A stretch of 64,000 nucleotides of DNA, taken from the NCBI GenBank assembly GCA_038231075.1, contig JBBRMA010000020.1, positions 4,964 through 68,963 on the forward strand, written 5' to 3'. Made by a program: the position numbers and the translations under genes. Each line of letters starts with the position of its first letter. Position 1 is the first letter of the stretch. The notes beneath the pieces were generated by a model, which was given only the letters and a program-made list of their open reading frames with translations, was not told the origin of the DNA and ran no database searches. Positions 48,045-48,882 of this stretch are shown piece after piece. This DNA comes from Myxococcales bacterium. Its GTDB lineage: Bacteria; Myxococcota; Myxococcia; Myxococcales; 40CM-4-68-19.

Positions 48045-48374
48045 ATGAAAAATGGCAAAAATGTCGCTCTCGCATTGATTGCCCTTCTCTGCGCAGGGTT
48101 GACCGCGCTGGTCAGCGCCCGCCGCGCCGACGCCGCAGCAGCGAACGGGCTTGAGCAGCGCGTGCAGAAGCTCGAGGCCCGCCTCGGCGCCTTGGAGCAA
48201 GACAACGGGCGGCTGCGCGAGGTGTTGCGCCTCTCGGGAAACAAGACGCTGACCATCCAGGCCAACCAGCTGGTCCTCCGCGCCGGCACGGTGGAAGTGC
48301 GCGCGGACAAGCAGATGACCATGGACGTCAAGGGTCCGGCCGTCTTCCGCGGCGCTCCCATCTCCCTCAATTAA
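48045..48374 (+). CDS. Exported mini-spike protein: signal peptide, coiled coil, gp5/VgrG C-terminal-like beta repeats
   Basis: MKNGKNVALALIALLCAGLTALVSARRADA; LEQRVQKLEARLGALE; LTIQANQLVLRAGTVEVRADKQMTMDVKGPAVFRGAPISLN; alternative ATG 48033. Confidence 0.7.
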   Translation: MKNGKNVALALIALLCAGLTALVSARRADAAAANGLEQRVQKLEARLGALEQDNGRLREVLRLSGNKTLTIQANQLVLRAGTVEVRADKQMTMDVKGPAVFRGAPISLN

Positions 48375-48378
48375 GCAA

Positions 48379-48882
48379 ATGGCGCGCTCAATCTTCTCAC
48401 TGTTGCTGCTCTTCTCCGCGGTGGCATTCGCGCCGCCGGGATTCGCTGGGCCGCCGCCTTGGCCGCCGCCCAGGGTCGATCCGCCGCCGCCGCCGCCCAA
48501 GATCGTCCCGCCGCCGCCACCGCCCAAGATCAAGCTCACGCCGCCTCCCGACCCAAGCTCGCGACGCCCGTCGAATCGGTGGCCCGCGGGCCGGCGGCCG
48601 GCCGCTCGCGCCTCCGACATGCACATCTGTCCCATGGTGACGGGCACGGTCCCGCACGTCGGCGGCCCGCTCTTGCCCAATCCGCGGCCCACCGTGCTCA
48701 TCGGCGCCCTCCCGGCCGCGCGCCTCGGGGACATGGCAGTCTGCGCCGGTCCGCCGGACGTGGTGGTCACCGGCTCGCGCACCGTCTTCATCCAGGGCAA
48801 GCAGGCGGCCCGGGCGGGCGATCAGACCGCGCACGGAGGCTCCATCTCAGTCGGCTTCCCGTCGGTCCTGATCGGTCCTTGA
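48379..48882 (+). CDS. PAAR domain protein with N-terminal signal peptide and polyproline linker
   Basis: PAARASD, PAARLGD, QAARAGD; HICP, PHVGG, TAHGG; leader MARSIFSLLLLFSAVAFA; Pro runs. Confidence 0.92.
   Translation: MARSIFSLLLLFSAVAFAPPGFAGPPPWPPPRVDPPPPPPKIVPPPPPPKIKLTPPPDPSSRRPSNRWPAGRRPAARASDMHICPMVTGTVPHVGGPLLPNPRPTVLIGALPAARLGDMAVCAGPPDVVVTGSRTVFIQGKQAARAGDQTAHGGSISVGFPSVLIGP

Follow-up and report, generated by a model that had tools for sequence, protein, structure and literature searches.

A pair of adjacent small genes in the Myxococcales bacterium of assembly GCA_038231075.1 encodes a miniature spike tip (gene 1) and a PAAR protein (gene 2), each carrying a signal-peptide-like leader. 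We consider it somewhat probable that the two genes form a conserved operon for an exported 3:1 complex of spike tip and PAAR, derived from an eCIS spike-PAAR pair of the afp8-afp10 type. To our knowledge, PAAR caps and spike tips have so far been met only as components of contractile injection machines, put together in the cytoplasm. A literature search, with supplementary tables of PAAR architectures outside its scope, found no report of a PAAR with a signal peptide or of an exported spike-PAAR pair, and the arrangement of leader-bearing mini-spike and PAAR seems undescribed. Here we describe the two proteins, their relatives and their predicted complex, and weigh the explanations for them.

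Genomic context of the pair

The window is the whole stretch of DNA analysed, 64,000 nt at positions 4,964-68,963 of the forward strand of JBBRMA010000020.1 (contig C20). The pair and its parts occupy the following positions in it:

47982..48010, + strand: sigma-70-like promoter site, TTGAGT-17-TATCAT with TG before the second hexamer (consensus match only)
48045..48374, + strand: gene 1, ATG to TAA, stop included, 109 aa; in-frame GC3 0.83
48045..48134, + strand: gene 1 signal-peptide-like leader, residues 1-30 (rule-based reading)
48144..48239, + strand: gene 1 coiled coil, residues 34-65, with heptads and two R-h-x-x-h-E motifs
48240..48371, + strand: gene 1 beta region, residues 66-109, homologous, by profile comparison, to the tip at the C-terminal end of Afp8/VgrG-type CIS spikes
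48379..48882, + strand: gene 2, ATG to TGA, stop included, 167 aa; PAAR protein with leader and proline-rich linker
48379..48447, + strand: gene 2 signal-peptide-like leader, residues 1-23 (rule-based reading)
48448..48594, + strand: gene 2 proline-rich linker, residues 24-72, with two PPPPPPKI units; GC3 of the proline-rich part 0.84
48595..48879, + strand: gene 2 PAAR domain, residues 73-167, complete (PF05488); GC3 of the PAAR part 0.89

Both open reading frames, and the 4-bp spacer that a sequence-only reading of this DNA had reported, were recovered at the same coordinates. Gene 1 would gain 4 residues if it began at another in-frame ATG, at 48033. The AT-richer leader noted in that reading was also recovered, the 59 bp at 47986-48044 having a GC content of 54% compared with 69.5% for the window. 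The promoter-like site is the only sigma-70-like site in 47700-49200 (1 found vs 0.0 expected from 50 shuffles). Upstream lies a FAD-dependent oxidoreductase of the DAO family, assigned at the level of the Pfam family and previously named thiO, and the convergent regulator reported downstream proves to be a sigma-54 response regulator. Neither a toxin nor an immunity-like partner adjoins the pair. In 19/19 loci of the same family, neither the pair nor the regulator follows downstream of the DAO orthologue, so these loci do not show a clean insertion between conserved flanks.

The gene 1 protein and its relatives

Signal peptides were judged by our own rules, namely a positive n-region, a hydrophobic core of 7-15 residues and small residues at -3 and -1. 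By this rule-based reading the gene 1 leader has a net charge of +2 ahead of the core, a 17-residue hydrophobic core, and A-D-A followed by A30. The core has a mean Kyte-Doolittle hydropathy of 2.48 over 19 residues, and is long enough to be a membrane anchor, possibly an uncleaved signal anchor. A lipoprotein was considered and rejected, there being no lipobox. The segment that follows has hydrophobic residues at 7 of the 9 a/d heptad positions, is helical in the monomer model and finds coiled-coil matches in the PDB. It holds the two R-h-x-x-h-E motifs picked out from the letters (RVQKLE and RLGALE), and both are conserved in the family described below. The beta region ends, as had been read, in FRGAPISLN, and its last 7 residues are the predicted PAAR-docking strand. 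Gene 1 matches no Pfam family at E up to 1 (including Phage_GPD, Phage_base_V, DUF3540 and DUF6484), in agreement with the earlier claim that the gp27/OB hub is missing from this protein of 109 aa in all. Since the mature protein would comprise only ∼79 residues, there is no space in it for a gp27-like hub or OB fold. The monomer model is poor (mean pLDDT 67.9, with the C-terminus <50), and the ESM Atlas lead is a DUF2345 cluster at 0.82 (<0.9).

An exhaustive phmmer search over 1.84 billion representatives returned 5 small relatives of gene 1 in addition to the query's own entry, and a profile search returned one further relative, giving a rare family of 7 clusters. Every one of the 7 members begins with a positive N-terminus and a hydrophobic core, has its -3/-1 site within positions 23-31, and carries the two R-h-x-x-h-E motifs, the first of them in 7/7 and the second in 6/7, with K for R in the seventh. 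The leader, coiled-coil and tip architecture is shared by 6/7 clusters at 29-43% identity, and the ending ...G-x-x-x-x-[IL]-N is found in 6/7 members; the tip has been lost from P0126. Eight residues, all in the coiled coil, are invariant (R39, L43, E44, L50, E51, N54, L57 and R58).

A word-index search with gene 1 gave nothing beyond gene 1 itself. Among the genomes of 60 relatives gene 1 was not found, the sole weak match being to the coiled coil in one genome (G034, E 0.0035), and the pair is absent from all 33 same-family genomes searched; PAAR genes are present in 10 of the 16 same-family genomes sampled. Across 400 other genomes of the phylum the family profile gave weak partial matches only, which include an ordinary spike tip (L023) and an unrelated lipoprotein with a coiled coil (L022). 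Searches of genome contigs and viral contigs for related loci found none, and gene 1 had no tblastn match in the phage and plasmid collections.

Relationship of the gene 1 C-terminus to CIS spikes

A tip profile was built from the C-termini (last ∼50 residues) of the gene 1 family. Against the PDB it matches 13 sequences at E up to 10, 8 of them spikes from CIS, T6SS or phages. The top three matches, to spikes of AlgoCIS (7aef_q, E 3.8e-4), Anabaena tCIS (7b5h_AJ, E 0.011) and SalCIS (9rce_F, E 0.066), reach the last residues of the chains. The profile was also compared with the best PAAR locus from each of 29 other genomes in a 401-genome sample of the phylum, and in 20/29 of these loci it matches the ORF directly upstream of the PAAR gene (E 2.2e-8 to 0.21). 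The spike ORFs matched are at least 466 aa long, as far as each locus reaches, and their order and adjacency, spike then PAAR, are those of gene 1 and gene 2. The proposal that gene 1 ends in a spike tip had been made from sequence motifs, and these E-values bear it out. On the basis of the profile comparisons, the gene 1 C-terminus is homologous to the C-terminal triple beta-helix tip of CIS spikes.

The gene 2 PAAR protein

The polyproline stretch and complete PAAR domain first described for gene 2 are both present, with 26 P in the 55 residues 19-73 (47%) and a PF05488 match at E 6.3e-23 (81.2 bits vs a cut-off of 27) that covers profile positions 1-68 of 70. Nine residues that are invariant in 14/14 aligned sequences are kept in gene 2 (P74, A75, A76, R77, H82, C84, H93, C122 and H152). 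Over 56% of its length, gene 2 shares 72-74% identity with ordinary PAARs of 96 aa. Its nearest solved relative is SalCis10 (9rce_c, E 8.9e-28), which caps 9rce_F, the same spike that is matched by the gene 1 tip profile.

By the rule-based reading, the gene 2 leader comprises R3, a 14-residue hydrophobic core, prolines, and G-F-A followed by G23, the sole -3/-1 site. Ordinary PAAR relatives begin M-x-P-A-A-R, and gene 2 keeps P74-R77 in frame. No ATG, GTG or TTG lies between the leader and the first PAAR motif, so the leader has to be translated. It had been noted as damaging to the sequence-only reading if the true PAAR start lay downstream of the leader; such a start, at M81, was rejected, as it would remove the invariant first PAAR motif. 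Leaders are otherwise absent from the PAARs compared, with 0/29 among the ordinary PAARs of the phylum loci and none among the 120 matches listed for PAAR relatives (113 of 94-99 aa, and 7 longer ones that were aligned).

Recurrence of the pair and the case for export

Two near-identical metagenome contigs, L019 (48% GC) and L020 (44% GC), carry a gene 1 relative (P0125) followed 12 bp later by a PAAR gene. On L019 this gene is complete, with a G-rich ribosome-binding site and a product of 118 aa. The hydrophobic leader of this product runs straight into the first PAAR motif, without the proline-rich linker seen in gene 2, so that cleavage of the leader would yield an ordinary PAAR start. The leader-bearing pair, for which a search of other genomes had been suggested, thereby recurs in an unrelated lineage. 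The window PAAR is 61% identical to the L019 PAAR, below its 72-74% with ordinary PAARs; judged by these identities, the two leader-bearing PAARs are not each other's closest relatives. The ESM Atlas leads for the L019 PAAR are PAAR clusters of 115-116 aa at 0.83-0.85 (<0.9). Adjacency to a PAAR gene is seen in 2/7 clusters (the window and P0125), a count that leaves out the contigs of P0122, P0124, P0126, P0127 and P0130.

Under the rules given above, features of Sec signals are present in 7/7 gene 1 relatives and in the window PAAR, while the L019 PAAR leader has the core and the site without a positive charge ahead of the core. On the strength of these features, both proteins would be Sec-exported.

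Predicted complex of spike tip and PAAR

Modelling of three gene 1 copies with one PAAR, a check suggested together with the original reading, docks the PAAR onto each chain's final 7 residues. The predicted contacts are between gene 1 residues 103-109, in all three copies, and PAAR residues 104-110, 133-140 and 160-167. The model has an ipSAE of 0.89 vs 0.27 for the best control (in the calibration, the mark was reached by 58/80 solved complexes and 2/110 mismatched pairs), with at least 97% contact agreement between runs and a partner pLDDT of at least 94. The copy number of three was imposed on the model, and the docking score may reflect solved VgrG-PAAR complexes, so that it shows likeness and not actual binding.

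Comparison with known systems

A close counterpart of the pair is the Afp8/VgrG spike with its Afp10 PAAR in eCIS. Common to both are the C-terminal strands ending in ...G-x-x-x-x-[IL]-N, the PAAR subfamily (that of SalCis10), the adjacent spike-PAAR order and, in the model, docking through the last strand of three chains. The differences are the length of gene 1 (109 residues vs ∼470-600 in eCIS spikes), its coiled coil in the place of their gp27 hub and OB fold, the leaders on both window proteins and the lack of CIS genes nearby.

A small exported protein with a parallel trimeric coiled coil is familiar from the envelope in periplasmic proteins such as Braun's lipoprotein Lpp, which is lipidated, is joined to the cell wall through its C-terminal lysine, and has no beta-helix and no known PAAR partner. 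Gene 1 would form a similar small exported trimeric coiled coil but has no lipobox.

Two T6SS proteins each resemble one member of the pair. TvpC (DUF3540/DUF6484) is described as a trimeric, VgrG-like T6SS accessory protein without gp27 that does not nucleate a tube; it binds PAAR at the tip of its beta-prism and is later replaced by VgrG1 (Monlezun, Earl, Coulthurst, EMBO J 2026, PMC13373197). In the same description it is cytoplasmic, has an OB fold and an 81-Å prism, is found in T6SS loci, and has TvpA (DUF2169), TvpB and a DUF4150-type PAAR as partners. Gene 1 would be analogous to TvpC as a shortened, gp27-less spike protein, a likeness drawn from described features and not from sequence alignment. 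Unlike TvpC as described, it has a leader, no OB fold, no DUF3540/DUF6484 match and no T6SS locus. The T6SS-5-borne PAAR5 of Burkholderia, a DUF4150-like protein, has a hydrophobic extension (aa 2-19) and then a motif rich in proline (aa 20-37), and its authors saw no signal sequence (bioRxiv 10.1101/2023.02.09.527577). As described there, it shares with gene 2 a PAAR-type cap, a hydrophobic N-terminal extension and then a semi-rigid proline-rich linker. Gene 2 differs in that its leader is laid out in n/h/c regions like a signal peptide, and in the adjoining mini-spike gene with its leader, of which the PAAR5 description has no equivalent.

The genome's own CIS and alternative explanations

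The sequence-only reading had the pair standing apart from any contractile machine. This holds for contig C20, where genome-wide scans gave no sheath, tube, gp25, Phage_base_V, Phage_GPD or TssC match, but not for the genome, which has a complete CIS locus on contig C9. That locus encodes two sheath and two tube proteins, a tube initiator, a 227-aa spike, gp25, baseplate J, Tail_P2_I and Pvc16_N; TssC is found nowhere in the genome. The C9 locus contains no PF05488 match, so the pair may be linked to this machine. Two other PAAR proteins are encoded in the genome, of 277 aa on C36 and 1566 aa on C42. At a limit of E 10 the tip profile finds no match in the C9 spike, against which gene 1 scores E 0.24 by BLASTP. 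Among the ORFs of the genome gene 1 is the only tip match of the family profile, and it is therefore no recent duplicate of the C9 spike.

The full CIS set without a PAAR on C9 gives some weight to the idea that the pair is a cytoplasmic accessory of that machine, with gene 2 as a PAAR tip encoded in trans and gene 1 as a TvpC-like stand-in, keeping the PAAR for later transfer to the real spike. The N-terminus and linker of gene 2 would then be a membrane-active extension on the spike, as proposed for PAAR5, and both parts of the scheme have a described precedent, in TvpC (PMC13373197) and in PAAR5 (bioRxiv 10.1101/2023.02.09.527577). We nevertheless regard it as unlikely. A hydrophobic N-terminus would be unexpected on a soluble chaperone, yet all 7 gene 1 relatives have one, with positive charge before it and an A-x-A-type site after it, and the L019 leader abuts its PAAR domain with no linker between. 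The C9 spike also falls outside the tip profile, the C36 and C42 PAARs are available to the C9 machine, and the pair is not near any CIS gene. Export and the proposed structure are retained in another reading, to which we give a slightly lower and likewise small probability, in which the products are look-alikes tied to CIS biology: they might serve in the periplasm as a decoy or give immunity to PAAR-tipped spikes arriving from outside, or they might partner the bacterium's own machine in the envelope. In its favour, each part closely resembles by sequence its counterpart in working spike-PAAR pairs, and the genome contains both a CIS and toxin-like proteins with PAARs. The pair's own promoter-like site and unrelated neighbours are, in our comparison, what small accessory or defence modules often have. 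Against this, no mechanism is evident: an incoming PAAR is already bound to its spike, and the gene 1 tip would already be capped by its own PAAR. The pair also has no adjacent immunity-like partner or toxin, and it is missing from the 33 same-family genomes searched, and PAAR genes occur in 10 of the 16 sampled.

A decayed eCIS remnant, in which a truncated spike and a PAAR have acquired hydrophobic N-termini by chance and have no function, would account for the spike-then-PAAR gene order, the rarity of the family (7 clusters) and the tipless member P0126. It would leave unexplained the architecture conserved in 6/7 clusters at 29-43% identity, the recurrence of the pair with a leader-bearing PAAR on a contig of very different GC, and a coiled coil with eight invariant residues that belongs to no spike. 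Both frames are open with GC3 of 0.83-0.89 and the PAAR keeps every invariant His/Cys column, and we consider decay very improbable.

Proposed origin and assembly

The reading we prefer is that of an exported 3:1 complex derived from an eCIS spike-PAAR pair. In gene 1, the ∼420-540 N-terminal residues of the spike (gp27 hub and OB fold) would have given way to a coiled coil of 32 residues preceded by a signal peptide of the Sec type, with only the last ∼44 residues of the triple beta-helix tip kept. Gene 2 would be an ordinary PAAR cap that has acquired a signal peptide, together with, in this genome, a proline-rich linker of ∼49 residues. In the proposed assembly both proteins would be exported through Sec, after which, outside the cytoplasm, three gene 1 chains may form a parallel coiled-coil stalk and a short triangular beta-helix. 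One PAAR would then add three base strands to the last strands of the chains, as in the model, and cap the blunt end, giving a 3:1 pointed rod that we estimate to be ∼100 Å long. Because it has no hub, the complex would be unable to sit in a baseplate or be fired, and it might be a static structure of the envelope or surface, or a spike-tip look-alike. The puncturing device, adhesin or decoy put forward in the sequence-only reading are speculative as roles.

It is possible, though we hold this tentatively, that the spike-tip/PAAR module has escaped contractile machines altogether, becoming a trimeric needle with a PAAR cap that would leave by Sec, assemble by itself and work in the periplasm or at the cell surface without a sheath, tube or baseplate. 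If true, no spike-PAAR complex before it would have been known to form beyond the cytoplasm, and the needle would add a new type to the small structures of the envelope.

Implications

In the conserved pair, only the tip and its cap appear to be kept, with export signals added and the machine-linking parts dropped. If the proteins act in the cytoplasm, they would provide a new PAAR-loading stand-in for extracellular CIS, the counterpart of TvpC, as described, in T6SS. If they are exported, the spike-PAAR interface would have been put to another use, for instance in a pointed rod of the envelope, in a structure at the surface or in a mimic of incoming spikes, and the pair, at about 80 + 95 residues, would offer a minimal system for the study of PAAR docking.

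Layout and flanks of the gene pair

The two closely spaced genes described by the sequence-only reading are recovered by ORF calling at the same positions, with a spacer of 4 bases between the stop of the first and the start of the second:

48045-48374, + strand: gene 1 (ATG to TAA), 109 aa
48379-48882, + strand: gene 2 (ATG to TGA), 167 aa

An alternative in-frame ATG at 48033 would lengthen gene 1 by 4 residues. The 59 bp 5' of gene 1 form the AT-richer leader noted earlier (54% GC vs 69.5% for the window), and contain the sole sigma-70-like site in 47700-49200 (one consensus match found, 0.0 expected). 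Third-position GC reaches 0.83 in gene 1 and, in gene 2, 0.84 over the proline-rich part and 0.89 over the PAAR part; each of these segments therefore looks coding in its stated frame.

The 5' neighbor of the pair is a DAO-family FAD oxidoreductase, and the convergent 3' neighbors are a sigma-54 response regulator (the regulator expected there) and a histidine kinase. Genes downstream of the DAO gene differ across all same-family loci examined (L030-L048), which places the spike-PAAR pair at a break in gene order. The DAO gene and a divergent dUTPase-like gene, the latter named by its appearance, together occupy 46303-47985 of the window and are kept as a pair in 14 of 19 of these loci. The window also encodes a Ser/Thr protein kinase (42860-46114, - strand, 1,084 aa) with a long low-complexity Ala/Pro-rich middle and a C-terminal FGE-sulfatase-like domain.

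Gene 2 is a PAAR protein with a translated leader

Gene 2 matches Pfam PAAR_motif with E 6.3e-23, and has 2,380 relatives among 5.8 billion proteins searched. The best 120 of the 2,380 share 54-74% identity over the PAAR part, and 113 of these 120 are 94-99 aa long. Among solved structures the closest is SalCis10, which is the PAAR in the contractile injection system (CIS) of Salmonella salamae (9rce_c, E 8.9e-28), followed by the T6SS PAAR 8gra_J (E 5.6e-20). In an alignment of 14 sequences (gene 2, 7 longer and 6 ordinary relatives), P74-R77, H82, C84, H93, C122 and H152 are invariant in 14/14 and all present in gene 2, confirming a complete PAAR domain behind the polyproline stretch (residues 19-73, 26 P in 55 residues). 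Ordinary relatives start M-x-P-A-A-R. M81 of gene 2 lies 4-7 residues after the first PAAR motif, and the stretch from the N-terminal leader to this motif has no ATG, GTG or TTG codon. A start at M81, downstream of the leader, is rejected since it would remove an invariant PAAR strand; the leader and proline-rich stretch thus belong to the gene 2 protein. The hydrophobic leader is absent from all 7 longer relatives aligned.

Gene 1: member of a rare family with a spike-tip C-terminus

Gene 1 matched no Pfam or NCBIfam family, and as a protein query gave no match in 33 same-family genomes. Searching 1.84 billion representatives exhaustively with phmmer returned its own entry, 5 small relatives (106-129 aa, 31-43% identity) and 1 unrelated repeat protein, and a profile search adds 1 further relative, giving a family of 7; the relatives found are all from metagenome assemblies. 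All 7 members have a positive N-terminus, a hydrophobic core and a -3/-1 site at positions 23-31, followed by the two consecutive R-h-x-x-h-E motifs first noticed in gene 1, with K replacing R once. This motif is said, after Kammerer and colleagues, to favor trimers. The C-terminal ...G-x-x-x-x-[IL]-N is present in 6/7; the seventh member (P0126) is divergent beyond the coiled coil.

A tip profile of the last ~50 residues of the family gave 13 matches at E <= 10 against all PDB sequences, 8 of them spikes. The three best come from AlgoCIS (spike 7aef_q, E 3.8e-4), the Anabaena tCIS (spike 7b5h_AJ, 0.011) and SalCIS (VgrG 9rce_F, 0.066), and each aligns as far as the final residue of its chain; other spikes matched are two Pvc8 entries, Gp5, a phage central spike and two VgrGs. 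As an independent check, the best PAAR locus was taken from each of 29 other genomes, out of 401 sampled across the phylum. The long ORF directly 5' of the PAAR gene matches the tip profile in 20/29 loci (E 2.2e-8 to 0.21), these ORFs ending for example in ...RGSLVKIN, and the PAAR protein starts M-P-(P)-A-A-(R/V), leaderless, in 29/29. The gene 1-gene 2 order therefore mirrors the ordinary spike-then-PAAR order, and the proposed gp5/VgrG-type tip of gene 1 is supported by homology; compared with an ordinary spike, gene 1 retains the tip only.

A lipoprotein-like 285-aa protein in another genome of the phylum sample (L022, 913-1770, - strand; second copy at L028) has a leader and coiled coil similar to gene 1 (family profile E 1.7e-5, restricted to these parts), then a long glycine-rich beta region, and adjoins an integrase-like gene.

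Predicted complex and export signals

The complex was modeled with gene 1 residues 33-109 in three copies and PAAR residues 72-167 in one, each with its own alignment. In the prediction the PAAR docks on the tip, as the sequence-only reading proposed, with an ipSAE of 0.89 (median of three runs) vs 0.27 for the best control; the calibration mark is attained by 58/80 solved complexes and 2/110 mismatched pairs, and user-supplied alignments fall outside this calibration. At least 97% of contacts agree between runs, with partner pLDDT of at least 94. Gene 1 residues 103-109 of all three copies contact PAAR residues 104-110, 133-140 and 160-167 in the model, by the same three-fold strand addition as in VgrG-PAAR structures. 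The score measures likeness to VgrG-PAAR and may reflect memory of solved complexes rather than prove binding. Modeled as a monomer (mean pLDDT 67.9), gene 1 gives a long helix (residues 3-60) followed by a tail that lacks structure, which would fit a tail that needs the trimer to fold. From residue counts, the coiled coil is estimated at ~48 Å, the beta-helix at ~26 Å and the linker at up to ~150 Å.

Leaders were judged by a rule-based check of n/h/c layout and -3/-1 sites. The layout is found in 8 of 9 (7 gene-1 family members and 2 PAARs), the exception being the PAAR of the metagenome contig L019, uncharged before its core. The gene 2 leader has a 14-residue core, then prolines, and a single site (G-F-A / G) at position 23; in that of gene 1 the core spans 17 residues and the site reads A-D-A / A (position 30), and its hydrophobicity would also permit an uncleaved anchor. 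The charges favor an N-terminus inside, which would place the functional parts of the pair outside the cytoplasm, whether cleaved or anchored.

A homologous pair in metagenomes

The leader-bearing pair recurs elsewhere. The gene-1 relative P0125 is found on two near-identical metagenome contigs, L019 (48% GC) and L020 (44% GC), preceded by an AGGAG ribosome-binding site, and a PAAR gene with its own G-rich site in front starts 12 bp after its stop. This gene is complete in L019 (118 aa, PF05488 E 3.9e-21), while the L020 contig terminates within it. The L019 PAAR lacks a proline-rich linker, its hydrophobic leader directly abutting the first PAAR motif, and cleavage at the predicted site would give an ordinary PAAR start. 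Neighbors are a LysR-type regulator (by appearance), an unassigned secreted protein and a hemopexin-repeat protein; these differ from those in the window, leaving only the pair in common. The window and L019 PAARs share 61% identity, below the identity of each to ordinary PAARs, and this comparison does not support a single origin of the leader.

The hemopexin-repeat protein of L019, secreted and 275 aa long, is encoded directly 3' of the pair (1498-2325, + strand); hemopexin domains are more familiar from animals.

Contractile machinery and alternative readings

The claim that no contractile machine is present stands for the window, whose contig gave no sheath, tube, gp25, Phage_base_V, Phage_GPD or TssC match, but fails for the genome. 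Contig C9 carries a CIS locus at about 28.8-60.4 kb (within about 28.8-63.3 kb, L014 and L015), in two blocks separated by a 3,334-aa ORF, encoding a Pvc16_N cap protein, 2 sheaths, 2 tubes, DUF6760, a CIS_tube-LysM protein, a Phage_base_V spike of 227 aa, gp25, baseplate J and Tail_P2_I. Three FHA-domain proteins within the locus (one a VWA fusion) and an adjoining putative kinase-like ORF are reminiscent of those T6SSs that are regulated by threonine phosphorylation. No PF05488 match was found on C9, and no TssC in the source genome. A second spike-like protein (821 aa, C26 30360-32825, L016), far from the CIS locus, has an N-terminus close to the C9 spike (Phage_base_V, E 1.7e-24) and is extended at its C-terminus by a long region that weakly matches Big_1. 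The other PAAR proteins (277 aa, C36 8999-9832, L017; 1,566 aa, C42 12417-17117, L018) are of a different subtype, both overlapped by long antisense ORFs, and are probably cargo-bearing caps. Gene 1 as a recent copy of the C9 spike is rejected, since the tip profile does not match that spike and BLASTP of gene 1 against it gives E 0.24.

The C9 machine could be served by the pair as cytoplasmic accessories, for which two precedents together lend support. TvpC, a trimeric, VgrG-like, gp27-less protein, binds a PAAR through its tip in a cytoplasmic pre-complex, from which VgrG1 then takes over (PMC13373197). In Burkholderia PAAR5, which is carried by a T6SS spike, a hydrophobic segment extends the N-terminus and there is also a proline-rich motif; its authors saw no signal sequence (bioRxiv 10.1101/2023.02.09.527577). 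However, gene 1 itself is leader-bearing in 7/7 members, the linker is absent from the L019 PAAR, and every CIS gene is far from the pair; this reading is considered unlikely. An exported complex whose role is tied to CIS biology is judged quite unlikely, and that the pair, with its coding-like frames, is a dead remnant is very improbable. Searches of full-text literature, supplements excluded, turned up neither a signal-peptide PAAR nor an exported spike-PAAR pair. Homology, conservation and the docking model support a stripped-down spike tip with its PAAR, with rule-based leaders on both, and we lean towards a 3:1 complex of spike tip and PAAR that is exported and descends from a spike-PAAR gene pair.
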